A DNA stretch of 32,000 nt, taken from NCBI GenBank assembly GCA_049296095.1, contig JBAQRV010000001.1, forward strand, positions 1-32,000, read 5' to 3'. This DNA comes from Candidatus Saccharimonadota bacterium. Its GTDB lineage: Bacteria > Patescibacteriota > Saccharimonadia > Saccharimonadales > Saccharimonadaceae. Shown here in pieces: positions 7,304 to 31,968 of this stretch. A program made the translations under genes and the position numbers. How positions within the stretch are numbered: the first letter of the stretch is position 1; each line of letters opens with the position of its first letter. The notes below the pieces were generated by a model. That model was given only the letters and a program-made list of their open reading frames with translations. It did not search any database and had not been told where the DNA came from.

Positions 7304-8029
7304 ATGGGAGATAAGATTATCCTAAACCTTGACCTGCGCACAGCACAGGGAAAGAAAGTCAAACAACTACGACAGGACGGAATTGTTCCGGCGGTTGTTT
7401 ATGGGCCGGGTGTTGAGCCGATCAATACACAGGCTGAATATAATGTAATGGAAAAAGTCGTCCGCAAAGCGGGCCGACATACACCAGTTCACTTGACGAT
7501 TGATGGCAAGAAAAAGATTGCCATGATTAAAGACGTCGACACTGAGCCTGTAAAGGCACGGATTCGTCACGTCTCATTTCACGCAGTGAATCAGAACGAT
7601 CCAGTGAATGCTGAAGTGCCGATCCGATTAATCGGTGAGGGTGAGAGCGAAGCTGAACGTGCTGGTCTGATCGTCTTGCAAGCATTGGATCACATTGAGA
7701 TCCGCGCCTTGCCACTCGATCTTCCAGAAGCACTCGAAGTTTCGATTGCTGGACTCAAAGAAGCGGGCGAGCAAATTACTCTTGGCGACATCCAGTTGCC
7801 TGAGAATGTCGCTTTCGTGGAACACACCACGGGACGCGAAGAAGAGGACGACGAGGCGCCACAACTCACTGACCTCGTGGTTGCGAGTGTCTATGAACCT
7901 GCCGCACTTGAAGCTGCTAATGAAGCTGCTGCGGGTGATGCTACTATCGAAACCGAAGTTGAAGCTGAGAATGGTGAAGCTGAAGCGACACCAGCCGAGG
8001 GCGAAGAAGCAAAGGCCGAAGAAAAGTAA
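7304..8029 (+). CDS. rplY: 50S ribosomal protein L25/general stress protein Ctc form, with acidic C-terminal tail
   Basis: MGDKIILNLDLRTAQGKKVKQLRQDGIVPAVVYG is a typical L25 N-terminus, with a strong GGAGG SD 6-8 nt upstream. The ORF-track start at 7064 overlaps DedA and is an artefact. Confidence 0.9.
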   Translation: MGDKIILNLDLRTAQGKKVKQLRQDGIVPAVVYGPGVEPINTQAEYNVMEKVVRKAGRHTPVHLTIDGKKKIAMIKDVDTEPVKARIRHVSFHAVNQNDPVNAEVPIRLIGEGESEAERAGLIVLQALDHIEIRALPLDLPEALEVSIAGLKEAGEQITLGDIQLPENVAFVEHTTGREEEDDEAPQLTDLVVASVYEPAALEAANEAAAGDATIETEVEAENGEAEATPAEGEEAKAEEK

Positions 8030-9970: not shown

Positions 9971-10324
9971 CTATTTCTTTAGGCGGTGATCAATTGCATC
10001 TCTACTGAGTAAGATAATATTTCGCATGAGATCATCAGGTAGTGGATTGCTTGGCGTAAAACTGATCGTTCCCTTGCTGAGTTTGAATGGTTCGAGTTCT
10101 TTTTTAAACACCGAGATGACCTCTGCCCCCGGATAAATACTCAAGAACTTTTTGTTTGAGGCAAAAGCGATCATGTATTTGCCTTTGTATTTGTAGGTCG
10201 GAATACCGTAACTGAAACTATCTTCGGCTTCGGGTACCTCTTCATATACAAGCTGACGCAAGTGCGAGAAGAAGGCTTTTTCTGCCGGAACCAACTTCTC
10301 GATGTATTCCGTGACGATTGTCAT
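9971..10324 (-). CDS. DUF1801 (YdhG-like) domain protein
   Basis: 117 aa. Pattern ...SFSYGIPTYKYKGKYMIAFASNKKFLSIYPG... matches my recollection of DUF1801. An extended -10 (tgttatatt, 10339-10331 on the - strand) ends 6 nt before the ATG. Confidence 0.6.
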   Translation of the reverse strand: MTIVTEYIEKLVPAEKAFFSHLRQLVYEEVPEAEDSFSYGIPTYKYKGKYMIAFASNKKFLSIYPGAEVISVFKKELEPFKLSKGTISFTPSNPLPDDLMRNIILLSRDAIDHRLKK

Positions 10325-26234: not shown

Positions 26235-26921
26235 GTGACTAACCCAGAAATTGTTGAAAGATTACAAGATCCTGTGTTTACACGCTTTGCTGAGGCAGAG
26301 CTCCCCGAATTGGTTCGTAATGAGAATGAATGGGGAACGGTCTCCTATCAGTTTGCGGATGGCAGTGAGGCGCTTAATTTATTTTTACTTCGCTCGAGAG
26401 TGATTGATTATGGACTTCCTGTGAGAGATGAGTCGCTTCATCCCGAGCTGTCCCCAGAAACATCAACAATTGCCAAACTCGATCATCAACTGGCGACTCA
26501 TATGATACCCAGGTCATTCCTATTTGAATCAAAAGTAAAATTCATTGATCAAGAAGCGATTCGAGCCAGTGAAGGTGTCGTGGCACTGAGTGAAGATTAT
26601 CATTATTTTGAAGCAGTTGTAGGACTCGACGATATAGTCGAAGATAAAGTAAAAGCTCACAAAGAATTCCGCACCAAGTCATTATTGAACGATTTAAATT
26701 ACTACTTTGCCAATCTGGGATATAAAGATGTATGGTTTAAGGTTCATCCGCTGATCGATGACTCAACAACACTCGCTGCCCAGCTGGTTGGTTTTACGCT
26801 TCATGGCGAGCGTGAGCGTACGGCAATTGAGCCGATTGTGATGGGCTTAGATGGTACCGTTGGTTTGTTGCCCGAGGATGTGTATGTTGATCCGTACCTC
26901 AGTGCACGAGTAAAGCATTAG
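26235..26921 (+). CDS. Acidic hypothetical protein (228 aa)
   Basis: GTG start with a GGAGGAG SD 6 nt upstream and an extended -10 (tgctatact) at 26191-26199. No recognisable motif. Confidence 0.6.
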   Translation: MTNPEIVERLQDPVFTRFAEAELPELVRNENEWGTVSYQFADGSEALNLFLLRSRVIDYGLPVRDESLHPELSPETSTIAKLDHQLATHMIPRSFLFESKVKFIDQEAIRASEGVVALSEDYHYFEAVVGLDDIVEDKVKAHKEFRTKSLLNDLNYYFANLGYKDVWFKVHPLIDDSTTLAAQLVGFTLHGERERTAIEPIVMGLDGTVGLLPEDVYVDPYLSARVKH

Positions 26922-28090
26922 AATATCTTCTCATCCTTCAAATCGTCGGGTAGAAAGCCCTTTTCGTGTTGAAAGTCTGCCTCCCATTTGTAATTCTTGC
27001 CGTAGCCGAGATCTTTCATGAGCTTGGTGGGAGCGTTGCGAAGGTGAAGTGGAACGGGTGAGTCGGGATATTGTTTGGCGAGGGCCTGCGCACGGCTCAT
27101 GGCATCAGTGGTTCGGCGTGACTTTTCACTCTTGGCGAGCGCTGCCGCGACGTGGAATAAAATGTAGCTCGATTCAGGCATACCAATGCGTTCGACGGCT
27201 TGAAATGCATTCAAGGCAAGTCCTAGTGCGCCGTTACCGGCCAGGCCGATATCTTCCGAAGCAAAAATGAGCATTCGGCGTGCAATGAATTTTGGATCTT
27301 CACCAGCATCAATCATACGGGCGAGGTAGTAGAGGGTCGCATCAACATTGCTGCCGCGCATGCTTTTGATGAAGGCGCTGATGACGTTATAGTGCATCTC
27401 GCCTTTTTTGTCATAGCCTGGAACACGTTTTTGAGCGGCAATCTTAATAGTCTCAATGGTTACCTTTTTATCCATGCCGAGTGCTAACTCTAAGTTGCCA
27501 AGCGCGACGCGAGCGTCACCGCCTGATAGTTCGGCGAGGTAATCGAGGGCATCTTTTGATACTCGGGAAGTCGCTTTAACCAATTTAAGGGCTCGCTGGG
27601 CGATGTCGATTATTTCATCTTTAGTTAAGGGTTCTAAAACCAGGACGCGACTTCGACTGAGGAGTGGGTTAATAACTTCAAAACTCGGGTTCTCGGTGGT
27701 GGCACCAATGAGCGTGATGAGGCCAGATTCAACGTGAGGCAGGAAGGCGTCTTGTTGGGCCTTATTGAAGCGGTGGATCTCATCGACAAACAGAATAGTG
27801 CGTAGTTGTAGGTTCCAGTTCTGGCGAGCATGCTCGACGACTTTCTCGACATCTTTTTTCCCGCTGGTGACGGCCGAGAGTTCGATGAACTCGGCGTTTA
27901 CCTCCTTGGTGATAATACGGGCCAGGGTTGTTTTACCACTGCCAGGAGGTCCCCATAAGATGAGGCTGACTGGTTCGCGGTTCTTGACGATTTGGCGTAA
28001 GATCTCGCCATCACCCAATAGATGGGTTTGCCCAATCACCTCATCCAATGTCTGCGGGCGCATACGCTCGGCTAGCGGTACTCTCTCCAT
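26918..28090 (-). CDS. rarA: Replication-associated recombination protein A (AAA+ ATPase)
   Basis: [21 protein letters not shown], Walker [12 protein letters not shown], Walker [12 protein letters not shown], and a MgsA C-terminal domain. The ORF-track start at 28186 runs through tRNA-Phe and is rejected. ATG 28099 is an alternative start. TATAAT (28103-28098) ends 7 nt before ATG 28090. Confidence 0.9.
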
Positions 28091-28111
28091 ACTTACCATT
28101 ATACCTCTCAG

Positions 28112-28144
28112 ATCAAAATAAAACCGACCTGTCGGACAGGTCGG
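28112..28144 (-). terminator. tRNA-Phe terminator
   Basis: 8-bp stem ccgacctg/caggtcgg, 5-nt loop, followed on the - strand by ttttatttt. Confidence 0.65.
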
Positions 28145-28153
28145 AAATAATCT

Positions 28154-28229
28154 TGGTGGCTCCTCCCAGACTCGAACTGGGGACACGCGGCTCTTCAGGC
28201 CGCTGCTCTACCAGCTGAGCTAAAGAGCC
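28154..28229 (-). tRNA. tRNA-Phe (anticodon GAA), CCA encoded
   Basis: Reverse complement folds as acceptor GGCTCTT/AGGAGCC (one G-U pair), D-arm gctc-agctggta-gagc, anticodon stem gcggc/gccgc with loop ctGAAga, and T-arm cccag-ttcgagt-ctggg. Confidence 0.9.
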
Positions 28230-28306: not shown

Positions 28307-28927
28307 ATGAAAAACATCGTCATTTTGGGTGCGGCAGGGCGAACAGGGTCTTTATTGGTGGATGCAGCGCTGGAGGCTGGCTATAAGGTGACTGCCTTTG
28401 TGCGAAAAGGTGAGCAGGTAGAGCCTAGGGATAACCTGGTGGTGATCGAGGGTGATGCTCGCAAGGCAGACGATCTTGAGTTCGCACTCGGTGGCCAGGA
28501 TGCGGTGATCTCGACACTCGGCTCAAATAAGCTGAAGGACGATCTGATTACCGAATCGACCAATGCATTAATCAAGGCAATGCATGCCAACAATGTGAAG
28601 CGGGTGATTATGATGTCGAGCTTTCTTGCGAGCGGACAGCTGAAGTTGAATCTGCTGTCGTGGGTGCTGGCAAAGATCTCGGCTGGGTTCGTGAGCGATA
28701 AACAAACGGGCGAGGAATTACTAAAGTCATCTGATTTAGACTGGACAATTGTCTATGCGACTCGCCTCGGTGATGGCCCAGCTACCGGTAAGGTTCGGAT
28801 AGTAACGGCTGATGAAACAGTCTCAGCCGTGAACGGGATAGATCGGGCTGATGTGGCAGCGTTTTTGATTGGTGAGGTTGATATTACTGAACATATGCGG
28901 CGAGCGGTGTTGATCACAACCCATTAG
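28307..28927 (+). CDS. NAD(P)H-binding SDR-type oxidoreductase (atypical SDR, flavin-reductase-like)
   Basis: MKNIVILGAAGRTGSLLV is a Rossmann GxxGxxG N-terminus. TATACT (28295-28300) ends 6 nt before ATG 28307. The ORF-track GTG at 28280 is probably an upstream extension. Confidence 0.8.
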   Translation: MKNIVILGAAGRTGSLLVDAALEAGYKVTAFVRKGEQVEPRDNLVVIEGDARKADDLEFALGGQDAVISTLGSNKLKDDLITESTNALIKAMHANNVKRVIMMSSFLASGQLKLNLLSWVLAKISAGFVSDKQTGEELLKSSDLDWTIVYATRLGDGPATGKVRIVTADETVSAVNGIDRADVAAFLIGEVDITEHMRRAVLITTH

Positions 28928-29265
28928 ATTGGAAGTAGTTTTTCTAGACGCGAGATTCGTTTGTCTCGCTTGGTATTGTCCTTGGCGATGGTATTGAGGA
29001 TCTCGTTTTGAGTGATCTCATTCTCGTCAAATCGGGCATCGATCGCATCAAATCGAGCATCGTGCTCGTCGAGGCGCTTCTCGATTGCCTCAAAGCGGAG
29101 ATCGATCTGATCGAACCGATGATAAACCTCAACCTTGAAGTCGTTAAGCGCATCACGCACCGACCCAACTTCCTTTGAGATGTGCTTGAATAGTCTGTCG
29201 AATTGGTCGTCGGTCATCATGTATCCATTTAAGCATGGGCTGGGAGGGTCAGTAAATACAGACAT
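28924..29265 (-). CDS. Small coiled-coil protein with five tandem heptads (x-R-F/L-D/E-x-I-D/E)
   Basis: 113-aa ORF containing HRFDQID LRFEAIE KRLDEHD ARFDAID ARFDENE. Start is uncertain (ATG 29265, 29220 or 29217). No family recognised. Confidence 0.55.
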   Translation of the reverse strand: MSVFTDPPSPCLNGYMMTDDQFDRLFKHISKEVGSVRDALNDFKVEVYHRFDQIDLRFEAIEKRLDEHDARFDAIDARFDENEITQNEILNTIAKDNTKRDKRISRLEKLLPI

Positions 29266-29367: not shown

Positions 29368-29443
29368 GCGGGTGTAGCTCAGCTGTTAGAGCGCGTCCTT
29401 GCCAAGGACGAGGCCCAGGGTTAGAGTCCCTGTACCCGCACCA
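29368..29443 (+). tRNA. tRNA-Gly (anticodon GCC), CCA encoded, noncanonical D-loop and T-loop
   Basis: Acceptor GCGGGTG/TACCCGC (G-U at 7:66), D-arm gctc-agctgtta-gagc, anticodon stem cgtcc/ggacg with loop ttGCCaa, T-arm caggg-ttagagt-ccctg. Total 76 nt. Confidence 0.85.
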
Positions 29444-29664: not shown

Positions 29665-30378
29665 TTAGGCTATGTAATCGAGTAAGGCTTTCATGTTATT
29701 TAGGGAAGTATCAATAAAATCTTTCACTAACATATCTTTGAAATGTACCAGTTTTTTACTAGAAAGCTTTGGCTCTGAGGTTACTTCATTCCCGTTACTA
29801 GACCACCCGCTCGCTTGAACACCCGCACTCTCTGCGTGTTTGTAATCATTCCACAGTTCATTATATAGGTTTATGAAATAATCATAATCCAATGGCGTTG
29901 TTATACCTCTACCGTTTAACAGTTTTAGATAAGAGTTGAATGACATATTGTAGGTTGTTCCTTGACGTACGATAGCGGCTGATATGGTCGGGTGTTTTTG
30001 TGCTAAGAGCTTTACGAGTGGCTCGAGTATTCGGCAATAGTCATTTATAAAATGGCGTAAAGCAGGGCTTAGGTCATAGGTGGTGAAGCTACTATCTCCA
30101 GTCGAGCCTTTTGTACGAGCGTAAGGTCGGATACTTGCTTTCTCTGCGGCAGAACTAAAGTCATTCTCACCGTAGCCCTTTTTTACAAATTCTAATGCCA
30201 GAACGCGCTCTCGATGCAAGTGCCCCGTAACCTGCTTAGTTGAAGACTCGAAGTCTTCCCGACGAAAGAACATGCCATTTAGATTGCCTGCGTTGTGCTT
30301 TCCAGCACCGTTAAGCTTACCTGTAATGTAATTGAGTGTTGTGTATCTTGTTGTCACTGAGATGGTCTCGATTCTCAT
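29665..30378 (-). CDS. Hypothetical protein A of the tRNA-Gly-adjacent island (237 aa)
   Basis: Long ORF in AT-rich DNA. TATAAT (30390-30385 on the - strand) ends 6 nt before the ATG. No family recognised. Confidence 0.65.
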   Translation of the reverse strand: MRIETISVTTRYTTLNYITGKLNGAGKHNAGNLNGMFFRREDFESSTKQVTGHLHRERVLALEFVKKGYGENDFSSAAEKASIRPYARTKGSTGDSSFTTYDLSPALRHFINDYCRILEPLVKLLAQKHPTISAAIVRQGTTYNMSFNSYLKLLNGRGITTPLDYDYFINLYNELWNDYKHAESAGVQASGWSSNGNEVTSEPKLSSKKLVHFKDMLVKDFIDTSLNNMKALLDYIA

Positions 30379-30460: not shown

Positions 30461-30490
30461 TTAGCAACTTTTTCTTTAGTAGAATATAAT
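30461..30490 (+). promoter_or_regulatory. Promoter of island gene B (TTAGCA - 18 nt - TATAAT), leaderless-type
   Basis: ttagca at 30461-30466 and tataat at 30485-30490. ATG 30497 follows after 6 nt with no SD. Confidence 0.4.
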
Positions 30491-30496
30491 TAAATC

Positions 30497-31315
30497 ATGA
30501 CCCTAATATCACTTGCATATAATAGATTCGTTGTTGGTGTATCCACTGATACTCAACTAACTTACATTGATAGCGGAACTTCAGCTGGAGATGCGATAAA
30601 AAGCCTTTCTTTTCGCTGTGCAAATGGTAAGTTCCTCGCTGCATATACTGGTAATAACATTTTCCTCGAAGATGGGGTACATGTTGTCGATTGGGTGACT
30701 AACCTTCTAAGTAACGCTGACATTGGTAGTAAGAAAGTTGATGAAGTTATACAAGAAATAGTTCAAGGCTTGAACGAAAAACATTATATTAGCCAGCCAG
30801 CAGCGTTAATAATTCTTATCGCTGGTTGGCGAGAAAATAATAATATTGTCTATCGGATTACGAACATCGGGGAGGATGGAGACCTATCTCCTAAGCAAAC
30901 TTTTGAAGTATTTATGAGTGAAGACGAGAGTGGTGTTATTGTCGATGGCTCTATCAAGATAGGTATGGACGATAGTTTTGACACTAAGGTTGAGGCCGTA
31001 AGGGAATTGCTAAAATCAACAACACCAGAGAATTTCAGAGACATTATCGGTCCTGAGCTTTACAGTCTTAATCAGATTGCCCACAATCACCCAACCCAAG
31101 GTAAGTACATCGGTGAAAATACAATGTTCACGTTTATTCAGCCTGTGGGCGATGGGATGGACGCTTGGAGGTATCCTGAAGGACAAACAAAGTATATGCT
31201 ACCTAATTTCAGCAATGCAGCGATGTCAGTCAAGGGAATTGTCGTTCACAATGACCCCGTAGAGGGTGGAACAATACAGATGGACATCAAGGGCTGGCCT
31301 CCCCGTAAGGGTTAA
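30497..31315 (+). CDS. Island protein B: divergent HslV/proteasome-beta-like (Ntn hydrolase fold) protein with a C-terminal extension; family assignment tentative
   Basis: 272 aa. The N-terminus M|TLISLAYNRFVVGVSTDTQLT lines up with E. coli HslV [21 protein letters not shown] at Thr1, Asp17, Gln19 and Thr21. Lys34 lies next to the Lys33 position. KFLAAYTGN compares with KVIAGFAGG, followed by LIILIAGW..IVYRI and VIVDGSIKIG. Confidence 0.7.
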   Translation: MTLISLAYNRFVVGVSTDTQLTYIDSGTSAGDAIKSLSFRCANGKFLAAYTGNNIFLEDGVHVVDWVTNLLSNADIGSKKVDEVIQEIVQGLNEKHYISQPAALIILIAGWRENNNIVYRITNIGEDGDLSPKQTFEVFMSEDESGVIVDGSIKIGMDDSFDTKVEAVRELLKSTTPENFRDIIGPELYSLNQIAHNHPTQGKYIGENTMFTFIQPVGDGMDAWRYPEGQTKYMLPNFSNAAMSVKGIVVHNDPVEGGTIQMDIKGWPPRKG

Positions 31316-31317
31316 TA

Positions 31318-31968
31318 ATGGATTACTCATGGAAGCCTGACGGCCATAAGATTAAAGTTCAGGGTGTACCATATCAATGGCCATTAGCACTTAGAAACTT
31401 CGTACTACCTGTTAGACATCAGGATGGTTGGATTGAAAACAGTAAAAACGTGACCAATACTGGTTTGAGTGCGAGAGAATGGTTTGGACTGGTGGTACAC
31501 GCCGTAGCAATGTCAGATGTTAGTGGCGACGAGATTCTTGTGGCAACTGAAGACACGGGTGGCGATGGTGCTGTCGTTAGTGTCGAGAATGGTGAAAATA
31601 TGGCAGTGCTTGTTGAGCAAACCCTTGCGACCCACAAAGAAGATGGTGACTTACTTGATGTCATTAGGCGGAGGGTTAGAGCGAAGTCTTCTATGGGTGA
31701 AAATTATGCAGAGAATAAACATTTAGTTATTCTTTGTAATAACAACGGTGATTTAATCGAGAAAAAGTTAGCAAAGATTGTATCTATAGGGATGTTTGAT
31801 ATCGTGAATATCATCGGATTCCAAGATAATGAACAGGGAAGACACTTTTTGAGTTATATTTTTGATAAGGACGTGCCCAATAAAGCAATTCACAGGATGG
31901 TTATTGATGACAGTAAGCTATGGCAAGCTGCGATTGATATATTTGAAGAAGAACAGAAAGTAAAATAG
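31318..31968 (+). CDS. Island protein C (216 aa), tightly linked to B; function unknown
   Basis: The ATG lies 2 nt after the B stop, with AAGGG 6 nt upstream. No confident motif. Confidence 0.7.
   Translation: MDYSWKPDGHKIKVQGVPYQWPLALRNFVLPVRHQDGWIENSKNVTNTGLSAREWFGLVVHAVAMSDVSGDEILVATEDTGGDGAVVSVENGENMAVLVEQTLATHKEDGDLLDVIRRRVRAKSSMGENYAENKHLVILCNNNGDLIEKKLAKIVSIGMFDIVNIIGFQDNEQGRHFLSYIFDKDVPNKAIHRMVIDDSKLWQAAIDIFEEEQKVK

Follow-up and report, generated by a model that had tools for sequence, protein, structure and literature searches.

A candidate proteasome-like threonine hydrolase, encoded without an unfoldase partner in Saccharibacteria and on mobile elements

The stretch of Candidatus Saccharimonadota DNA analysed here (the window; 32,000 nt, positions 1 to 32,000 of contig JBAQRV010000001.1, assembly GCA_049296095.1) carries near its downstream end a gene for what is very likely a divergent proteasome-beta-like N-terminal nucleophile (Ntn) threonine hydrolase (30497..31315, + strand; ATG start, 272 aa), recognised from the list of open reading frames (ORFs), family conservation, AlphaFold2 modelling and Foldseek searches. 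It is followed, 2 nt past its stop codon, by a gene for a 216-aa protein of unknown function (gene C; 31318..31968, +). An earlier note on this DNA had proposed an HslV/proteasome-beta-like hydrolase here; the ORF, its ATG and its Met-Thr N-terminus are exactly as given there, and the residues it quoted (T2, D18, Q20, T22, and K35) and the segments KFLAAYTGN, LIILIAGW..IVYRITNIGEDG, and VIVDGSIKIG were all found. The ATG at 30497 is the earliest start codon 3' of the upstream in-frame stop, so the protein should begin with Met-Thr and have no propeptide. Met-Thr is a standard substrate of methionine aminopeptidase, and the known specificity of that enzyme suggests that Met1 is lost. The codons of the residues discussed below lie on the + strand at 30500-30502 (Thr2), 30548-30550 (Asp18), 30599-30601 (Lys35), 30650-30652 (Gly52), 30863-30865 (Asn123), and 30947-30949 (Gly151). 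An identical protein has already been deposited as a "hypothetical protein" in the Candidatus Microsaccharimonas metagenome-assembled genome (MAG) GCA_049286885.1.

A word-indexed search recovered 17 close relatives with 50% identity or more, each of them from a Saccharimonadales-type metagenome bin, and a HMMER profile search that covered 1.84 billion cluster representatives exhaustively (cut-off E<=1e-3) found 52 distant relatives, mostly 260 to 320 aa long and nearly all aligned from their own residue 1. We aligned 48 of the 52 (mean column identity 20%); the conservation counts that follow refer to this alignment and to precursor numbering. The initiator M1 is present in 47 of the 48, and the predicted mature nucleophile at residue 1 is Thr in 44 (T2) and Ser in 2, the other two sequences starting downstream of this position through truncated or differently called starts. 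Lys35, Asn123, and Gly151 are invariant (48/48); D18, G52, and F136 are kept in 47 members each, G110 in 46, W66 in 45, and P236, which lies within a conserved C-terminal addition, in 44. Position 22 is T or S in 47/48, and position 49 is always small (A, S, G, T, or C). In the register given by hhalign, D18, K35, G52, and the small position 49 supply the equivalents of Asp17, Lys33, and the oxyanion region of proteasome-like enzymes. Given its invariance at about 20% identity, the pattern of this putative triad is beyond chance; conservation of Thr2, Asp18, and Lys35 was the check that the earlier note had proposed in homologues, and all three are invariant or nearly so. Asn123 and Gly151 are conserved residues specific to the family. 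Some members carry further C-terminal additions, namely a SEC-C motif (3/48) or an Ig-like domain (1/48).

At the level of sequence, the link to known proteasome homologues is weak. The hydrolase has no match in Pfam, NCBIfam, PADLOC, or PHROGs, a phmmer search against all PDB chain sequences gave no match, and as judged by sequence models the family is not a member of Pfam Proteasome (PF00227) or MEROPS T1. When the family profile was aligned with E. coli HslV alone using hhalign, residues 1-53 fell on HslV 1-50 with a probability of 16%, so that T2 meets Thr1, D18 meets Asp17, Y-T-G meets F-A-G, and a one-residue insertion brings K35 onto Lys33. The same local alignment was obtained against eight HslV sequences (E. 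coli, Halomonas, Legionella, Sinorhizobium, Novosphingobium, Bacillus, Staphylococcus, and Enterococcus) with a P value of 4e-4 and a probability of 34%, and HMMER against PDB sequences placed a T. cruzi beta subunit in the identical register at E ~1. The family consensus at Asp18 is S-D-t-R-L-T, which in mature numbering reads D17-x-R19-x-T21, the signature of proteasome beta subunits; the T. cruzi alignment (TTIVGVVYKEGVVLGADTRAT..K) agrees with it. Three independent weak alignments thus agree, and the sequence link appears consistent as well as weak. The Thr1/Asp17/Lys register that the earlier note had drawn was reproduced by hhalign and HMMER, its parallel between KFLAAYTGN and KVIAGFAGG by hhalign, and the E. 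coli sequence that it gave is correct when compared with hslV of NC_000913.3 (KKV...KVIAGFAGG). Similarity to HslV over the whole chain, as would mark an HslVU protease, was not found.

Structure prediction gives a much clearer picture. A template-free AlphaFold2 model built on the 48-sequence alignment has a predicted local distance difference test score (pLDDT) of 90.7 and a predicted template modelling score of 0.89. It contains strands at residues 3-8 and 13-18, a hairpin (20-22, 29-32), strands at 36-41 and 44-50, helices at 63-73 (H1) and 81-96 (H2), strands at 105-112, 115-122, 137-141, and 146-151, helices at 159-174 and 177-196, strands at 209-214 and 222-226, and three short strands up to residue ~250, with residues ~251-272 forming a low-confidence tail. 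This order, S1 S2 (hairpin) S3 S4 H1 H2 S5 S6 S7 S8 H3 H4 S9 S10, is the one found in proteasome beta subunits, and together with the Foldseek results it describes a four-layer alpha-beta-beta-alpha fold in which Thr2 opens S1, Asp18 closes S2, and Lys35 stands just before S3, as in beta subunits. Foldseek found 279 matches in the PDB at E<=1e-3, and the 50 best of these are nearly all 20S subunits, mostly beta, together with Anbu and one taspase. The top 20S beta subunits match with E 2e-6, a probability of 1.00, and template modelling scores (TM-scores) of 0.55-0.66 normalised on the target; Anbu matches with TM-scores of 0.54/0.62 and a root-mean-square deviation of 4.2 (5nyw_B), and 5loy_A was found too.

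Neither of the two outcomes that the earlier note had named as refuting its proposal came about: a proteasome-fold match was obtained with a confident model in the AlphaFold2 and Foldseek search (the Pfam search gave none), and homologues keep the N-terminal Thr, Asp, and Lys. Its reading of individual segments agrees with the model. LIILIAGW..IVYRITN corresponds to S5-S6, and VIVDG-S to S8 plus the position of the G-S-G loop before H3, where only the Gly of the loop is conserved. The roughly 90 C-terminal residues that it had left without a counterpart were an overestimate: the strands at 209-214 and 222-226 take the places of S9 and S10, an assignment made from secondary-structure order, and short conserved strands follow to ~250.

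A first AlphaFold2 model, built on the close alignment of 17 sequences, reached a pLDDT of only 49 and was set aside for the 48-sequence model; its Foldseek matches were non-significant and split between PP2C phosphatases, at the top, and proteasome subunits. These matches, a few PP2C matches far down the list from the viral structure database (BFVD), and the failure of sequence-only searches to reach the proteasome family would fit a misleading likeness, in which the protein either belongs with other alpha-beta-beta-alpha sandwich enzymes, for instance the PP2C-type phosphatases, or is a scaffold without catalytic activity. We consider this very improbable: the confident model leads to beta subunits at the full Foldseek probability with no PP2C among the 50 best of the 279 matches, the 48-sequence alignment lacks the metal-binding Asp/Gly motifs of PP2C, and invariant Thr2, Asp18, and Lys35 at the N-terminus speak against a dead scaffold. 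A proteasome-like Ntn fold with an intact active site, its triad assigned by the alignment register, is in our judgement very likely. Since H1 to H4 are all present in the model, homo-oligomeric rings may form, and the C-terminal addition might interfere with their formation.

Several features are shared with 20S beta subunits and HslV, namely the fold, the order of elements, the N-terminal Thr, the Asp17 and Lys33 equivalents, the Gly in Y-T-G, and D-x-R-x-T. Unlike those proteins, the hydrolase lacks similarity detectable with hidden Markov models, a propeptide, alpha subunits, and HslU or another unfoldase; Ser129, Asp166, and Ser169 are not conserved, Asn123 and Gly151 are invariants of its own, an extra conserved C-terminal segment of ~40 residues (estimated from secondary structure) is present, and its genomic contexts are mobile or variable. 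Anbu, which is characterised by a long C-terminal helix H5 and an operon with ATP-grasp, Alpha-E, and transglutaminase genes, is among the best structural matches of the model (5nyw_B), whereas the hydrolase has neither the long H5 nor an operon of the Anbu type.

Anbu, BPH, and connectase are characterised proteasome homologues without partners, to which Fuchs, Alva and Lupas (2021; PMC8665760) added 22 further clusters, so the suggestion in the earlier note that a protein of this kind is undescribed is not supported. Those clusters were defined by a conserved triad and a predicted fold, the same grounds on which we judge the present family; several are found on phages, some have extra C-terminal domains, and, apart from beta subunits and HslV, the homologues have no propeptide (PMC8665760). 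The hydrolase resembles Anbu, BPH, and the 22 clusters in being partner-less and propeptide-less, in its conserved triad, and in being detectable only by sensitive methods. One cluster, DAH (Distant Actinobacterial proteasome Homolog), is distant, has an extra C-terminal domain of unknown structure, and occurs in Actinobacteria, other bacteria, and phages (PMC8665760). It is plausible that the present family is this cluster, likened here by description alone (DAH, for example, WP_085249540.1), in that both have a C-terminal addition and the family has members on actinobacterial phages and a Mycobacterium plasmid. Table 1 of the same paper has no separate column for the candidate phyla radiation (CPR) or Saccharibacteria, neither is mentioned, and the paper nowhere uses the term "retron" (PMC8665760). 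Among the citing papers searched, none reports functional follow-up on the clusters.

Connectase deserves separate comparison, since the hydrolase could likewise act on one partner, for example the gene C product or a phage protein, as a monomeric transpeptidase or ligase with sequence specificity, or as a protease that cuts at one site, instead of breaking down proteins in general. Connectase is also propeptide-less, with a Thr1, ~290 aa, a monomer, free of an unfoldase, and extended by C-terminal additions; it lacks H1 and H2 and carries, between S3 and S4, two inserted helices (PMC8665760). The conserved C-terminal addition of the present family (P236, 44/48) and the SEC-C and Ig-like domains could be substrate-recognition modules, and the tight pairing with a variable partner gene would fit such an enzyme. 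In the AlphaFold2 model, by contrast, H1 (63-73) and H2 (81-96) are present and the S3-S4 insertion is missing; connectase structures are not among the 50 best of the 279 PDB matches, and no candidate recognition motif was identified. Connectase also differs in being restricted to methanogens. With H1 and H2 present and the insertion missing, a connectase-like activity seems improbable to us and is a minor rival.

If the hydrolase works as a proteasome-type enzyme, methionine aminopeptidase would strip Met1 so that Thr becomes residue 1, and the side-chain oxygen of Thr1 would act as the nucleophile. Lys34 and Asp17 of the mature protein (Lys35 and Asp18 of the precursor) would complete the triad, a backbone NH in the A-A-Y-T-G segment would supply the oxyanion hole, and peptide or amide bonds would be cleaved without an ATP-dependent unfoldase. 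The analysis shows the ORF, the family, its conserved residues, the fold, the lack of a partner ATPase, and the genomic contexts, and from these we infer loss of Met1, substrate, hydrolytic chemistry, oligomeric state, and defence role. Peptidase or amidase chemistry as such we hold to be probable by a modest margin.

Gene C begins so close to the hydrolase stop codon that the two genes are probably co-transcribed and translationally coupled. At the locus of the closest relative (L006), a tRNA-Gly(GCC) gene is followed by a hydrolase 80% identical to that of the window, a gene C 79% identical, and then a KAP-family NTPase. Gene C is the only neighbour kept beside the hydrolase there, and because the pair is kept together, hydrolase plus gene C appears to be the conserved unit. 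The gene C family has 25 members with invariant SxREWxGLxxH, GGDG, VEQTLxT, KS..G..Y..N.H, and CN motifs. It gave no match in Pfam, PADLOC, NCBIfam, PHROGs, or PDB sequences, its profile against the PDB was non-significant, and it is absent from the viral contigs searched. A PD-(D/E)xK reading of its D...E-Q-T motif was considered and found unsupported.

The two genes would form a two-gene operon in a low-GC stretch near a tRNA-Gly(GCC) gene (29368..29443, +; ARAGORN), which marks the upstream edge of this variable stretch; past it the guanine-plus-cytosine (GC) content drops from ~0.50 to 0.39-0.42. Between the tRNA and the hydrolase/C pair lies an orphan ORF of 237 aa (29665..30378, -), divergent from the hydrolase and without any family match, for which no homologue was found in any other locus compared, so that it is peculiar to this genome. 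A consensus scan located a promoter-like site, TTAGCA-18-TATAAT (30461..30490, +; 10/12, a pattern match only), which ends 6 nt before the hydrolase ATG, and no Shine-Dalgarno sequence is visible before that codon. If this putative promoter is used, its position and the missing Shine-Dalgarno sequence suggest a leaderless or near-leaderless mRNA. The tRNA-Gly(GCC) gene is also directly upstream of the hydrolase gene in L006 (7745-7820; gene at 8001) and L007 (7868-7944; gene at 8001). The hydrolases of these three genomes are only 52-80% identical and the downstream genes differ; the adjacency points either to an ancient syntenic position or to a site of repeated integration.

Upstream of the hydrolase the window carries BipA, a trehalase, and then MgsA/RarA, and the same block stands upstream of the locus of the closest relative. 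MgsA/RarA (26918..28186, -; RuvB_N, AAA, and MgsA_C domains) is a housekeeping AAA+ protein, with two tRNA genes between it and the hydrolase. The earlier statement that no HslU or other AAA+ gene is nearby is therefore correct for HslU and literally incorrect for AAA+ genes in general, MgsA/RarA not being an HslU-type unfoldase. MgsA/RarA is followed by tRNA-Phe, a gene for an NAD-binding protein, a coiled-coil ORF, and tRNA-Gly(GCC). The coiled-coil ORF (28924-29265, -; 113 aa), between the NAD-binding gene and tRNA-Gly, has an internal repeat, RFDQIDLRFEAIEKRLDEHDARFDAIDARFDENE, and only weak matches to coiled-coil DUF families. Elsewhere in the window, an MDR-NUDIX RNA motif (RF02918; 9875-9931, -; 58.1 bits versus a gathering score of 54.9) lies upstream of a 117-aa ORF (9971..10324, -).

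On the other side, the region downstream of the hydrolase continues past the window as a mixed accessory and defence island. It contains unknown genes and, at 6-10 kb past the window end (L001:16132-20819, the same genome), heliorhodopsin, a metal-sensing repressor, and a rhodanese, followed by a type I restriction-modification system (HsdM, HsdS) with a HEPN AbiU2 protein, ~7-10 kb downstream. None of the defence models in PADLOC-DB 2.0 matches the hydrolase, its neighbour gene C, or the 237-aa ORF upstream.

We compared ~14 genomic contexts of relatives and found no conserved AAA+ or unfoldase neighbour among them. An hslU-type (Clp/Hsp100 AAA+) gene is present neither in the window nor in L001 (plus or minus 10 kb), nor at the locus of any relative. 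The proposal of an HslV/proteasome-beta-like Ntn hydrolase without an ATPase partner is accordingly supported by AlphaFold2 and Foldseek, by conservation, and by the lack of an unfoldase in these contexts.

In L004, from the Saccharimonadales MAG GCA_040384245.1, a 51%-identical homologue begins within the gene for a reverse transcriptase (RT) of the retron clade, the two overlapping by 4 nt. Retron types were assigned following the classification of Mestre et al. 2020 as implemented in PADLOC. The RT matches PADLOC RT_VI at 1.2e-72 and the NCBIfam retron models St85, Ec67, and TIR at 1e-46 to 1e-49, below their curated cut-offs. Upstream of it, a 12-nt perfect inverted repeat (TTAGGAGAACGA / TCGTTCTCCTAA), for which we estimate a chance expectation of ~0.01 in that region, encloses 229 nt and ends 16 nt before the RT start; a 261-nt stretch that takes in the two arms is strongly structured when folded (z = -5.0). 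This predicted repeat-bounded RNA has the anatomy of a retron msr-msd. L004 8842-10004 thus looks like a complete retron with the hydrolase homologue and a MauJ-domain protein in the effector position, and the order structured RNA, RT, 4-nt overlap, homologue as effector, and second gene is that of retrons. An RT, an adjacent noncoding RNA (ncRNA), and an effector occur together only in this related locus and not in the window.

In type VI retrons the partner of the RT is a small helix-turn-helix (HTH) protein, and the PADLOC profile HTH_VI is only 92 positions long. In contrast, the effector position of L004 holds the hydrolase and the MauJ-domain protein, no PADLOC retron accessory model matches the homologue, and neither the homologue nor its partner has any PADLOC match. 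L004 may be an undescribed retron subtype in CPR bacteria. Unlike retrons, the window copy and most relatives lack an RT; in a sister genome (L011) the homologue and the MauJ-like gene are kept without one. L013 has a second, different RT, followed by a Rosmer-like RmrA (HTH and M78 peptidase), a DUF4411 protein, and then the homologue.

The L004 and L013 regions each have a large serine recombinase, a LOOT RNA motif, and a tRNA or tmRNA gene at their boundaries, and so look like integrative islands. The LOOT motif (RF03000) was found at L004:13027-13140 (-) and L013:2573-2693 (+) with 58 and 70 bits, over the gathering score; in both loci it adjoins the large serine recombinase, and tRNA-Lys or tmRNA stands at the island edge. 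This suggests that integrative elements of Saccharibacteria carry LOOT as a mark at one end. Besides RmrA, neighbours lying within a few kb of relatives include a KAP NTPase (QatA/PifA-like), a helicase of 1697 aa that resembles Mokosh/Hhe and PDC-S37, HicAB next to a NucS_C protein (PDC-S02), and an SLFN-like helicase (PDC-S41/Nhi-like match). HEPN_Toprim_N and a prophage-like region were found in such contexts too.

Members of the family are also carried by phages and a plasmid. Foldseek against predicted viral structures (BFVD) gave a full-length match to a 289-aa protein of Gordonia phage Nymphadora (E 2e-12, TM-scores 0.76/0.72). The family member P0037 found the same protein, gp30, by tblastn (E 9e-8), with copies in five related phages too, and the family profile aligned with gp30 in hhalign at a probability of 99.5% and E 3e-22. 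The N-terminus of gp30 reads V(M)TLVQT..VSDRRLT..NK..FTG. The gene lies just past the tail genes on the opposite strand, between them and the integrase, and in temperate actinobacteriophages this region is the usual site of lysogenically expressed accessory and defence genes. The literature on Nymphadora is silent on gp30. The phage matches of another member, P0049, cover its C-terminal Ig domain only. The hydrolase of the window itself gave no tblastn match in phages, and a locus search with the close alignment returned one already-known genome locus, one short metagenome contig, and no viral contigs.

A search with gp30 led to a 295-aa homologue on pJCM17324, an 18-kb mobilizable plasmid of Mycobacterium marseillense, on which a resolvase, a 239-aa protein, and the homologue follow one another. 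The 239-aa protein (VSRNDAGH; L022:648-1367) and the MauJ-like protein of L004 (VRNTSAH; L004:10867-11694) both contain R-N-x-x-x-H near the C-terminus. Rx4-6H is the motif of HEPN RNases, and at the level of this motif both partners may be called HEPN-like. The L004 and L011 partner matches the Pfam MauJ domain (2e-10), no pairwise similarity was detected between the MauJ-like protein and the Mycobacterium partner, and a literature search on MauJ with HEPN found nothing.

Against these contexts stands the possibility that the protein, though an active proteasome-like Ntn hydrolase, serves the cell in an ordinary way, for instance in peptide turnover, in maturation of a specific protein, or in hydrolysis of a small-molecule amide, and is dispensable and without any link to conflict. 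Some members do stand alone among housekeeping genes. The SEC-C-tailed P0066 (323 aa) is encoded between gcvT and gcvH, in the same orientation, in two independent assemblies (L016:5832-8379 and L017:653-3200), with gaps of 44 and 26 nt in the glycine-cleavage operon; P0005 lies between tRNA-Gly(GCC) and a RibD_C gene, and P0006 beside glycolysis genes. The tRNA-Gly(GCC) adjacency in three genomes could likewise be plain conserved synteny, and the lack of any PADLOC model for the hydrolase fits as well. A housekeeping enzyme, however, would be expected to be widespread and syntenic, whereas this family is very rare and patchy (52 representatives among 1.84 billion, with every cluster examined a singleton), and a mobilizable plasmid, a temperate phage, and islands bounded by recombinases carry members of it. 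In L004 a retron RT and one copy are translationally coupled, and the copy in the window belongs to a low-GC stretch. The main rival is thus an ordinary, dispensable peptidase or amidase, and we consider it unlikely but well short of negligible.

The reading we prefer, and hold with somewhat better than even confidence as a whole, is that the gene encodes a propeptide-less proteasome-like Ntn hydrolase, carried as a mobile accessory gene, with a place in a conflict system as its most likely role. The hydrolase would be the effector or processing enzyme of a small anti-phage or abortive-infection system, and its variable neighbour (gene C, HEPN-like proteins, or a retron RT with its ncRNA) would be the sensor or regulator.

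Several observations weigh against this reading. As regards the fold, none of the 48 family members matches Pfam Proteasome PF00227 at E<=1, the family profiles find PDB sequences at non-significant values only (best E ~1), the hhalign similarity to HslV is of 16-34% probability and limited to the first ~50 residues, and hhalign in global mode fails (probability 1.4%). TM-scores with solved proteasome subunits are moderate at 0.45-0.66. Proteasome Ser129, Asp166, and Ser169 are not kept across the 48 members; of their putative equivalents, placed by position relative to H3 and H4, only Gly151 and Ile205-Gly206 are kept, position 152 being variable (A10, S9, T9, others) and no conserved Asp preceding Gly206. 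These three residues are also not universal in divergent homologues, so membership in the broad sense is still allowed. The invariant Asn123 has no assigned proteasome counterpart.

As regards the role, no neighbour is conserved family-wide, several members are singletons among ordinary genes, and there is no retron RT, RT remnant, or retron ncRNA at the window locus. Gene C probably often occurs without the hydrolase, because search counts gave 25 members of its family versus only three close hydrolase relatives. The case for a conflict or defence role comes only from gene neighbourhoods, and we put it, taken by itself, at a little less than an even chance. A literature search found nothing that links proteasome homologues to retrons or defence.

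A bolder extension of the preferred reading is that the family is an unrecognised class of anti-phage or abortive-infection effectors, deployed in small cassettes with interchangeable partners and carried by temperate phages as lysogeny-expressed defence. In Microsaccharimonas the partner would be gene C and in L004 the type-VI-like retron RT and ncRNA, while other Saccharimonadales and the Mycobacterium plasmid would use HEPN-like RNxxxH proteins. We offer this as a tentative proposal that is more doubtful than the conflict role in general; if true, a new retron type would be defined, and a proteasome homologue in bacteria would for the first time have an immune role.

The saccharibacterial hydrolase adds to the established partner-less proteasome homologues, and its value is in the leads that its contexts give. 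Three of these did not turn up in our reading of the 2021 catalogue: the joining of the homologue to a retron RT and ncRNA in one operon, the HEPN-like partners, and the position of the Nymphadora gene in the lysogeny region. The pairing with gene C is a further contextual lead. Because Pfam, NCBIfam, PADLOC, and PHROGs all miss the family, it deserves a profile of its own. Nymphadora is cultivable, its host being Gordonia terrae 3612, and the leads together open function to experiment in tractable hosts. If our reading is right, the catalogue of orphan proteasome homologues would extend to CPR bacteria, and Saccharibacteria, actinobacterial phages, and plasmids would share a mobile, unfoldase-independent relative of the proteasome that annotation libraries do not name.

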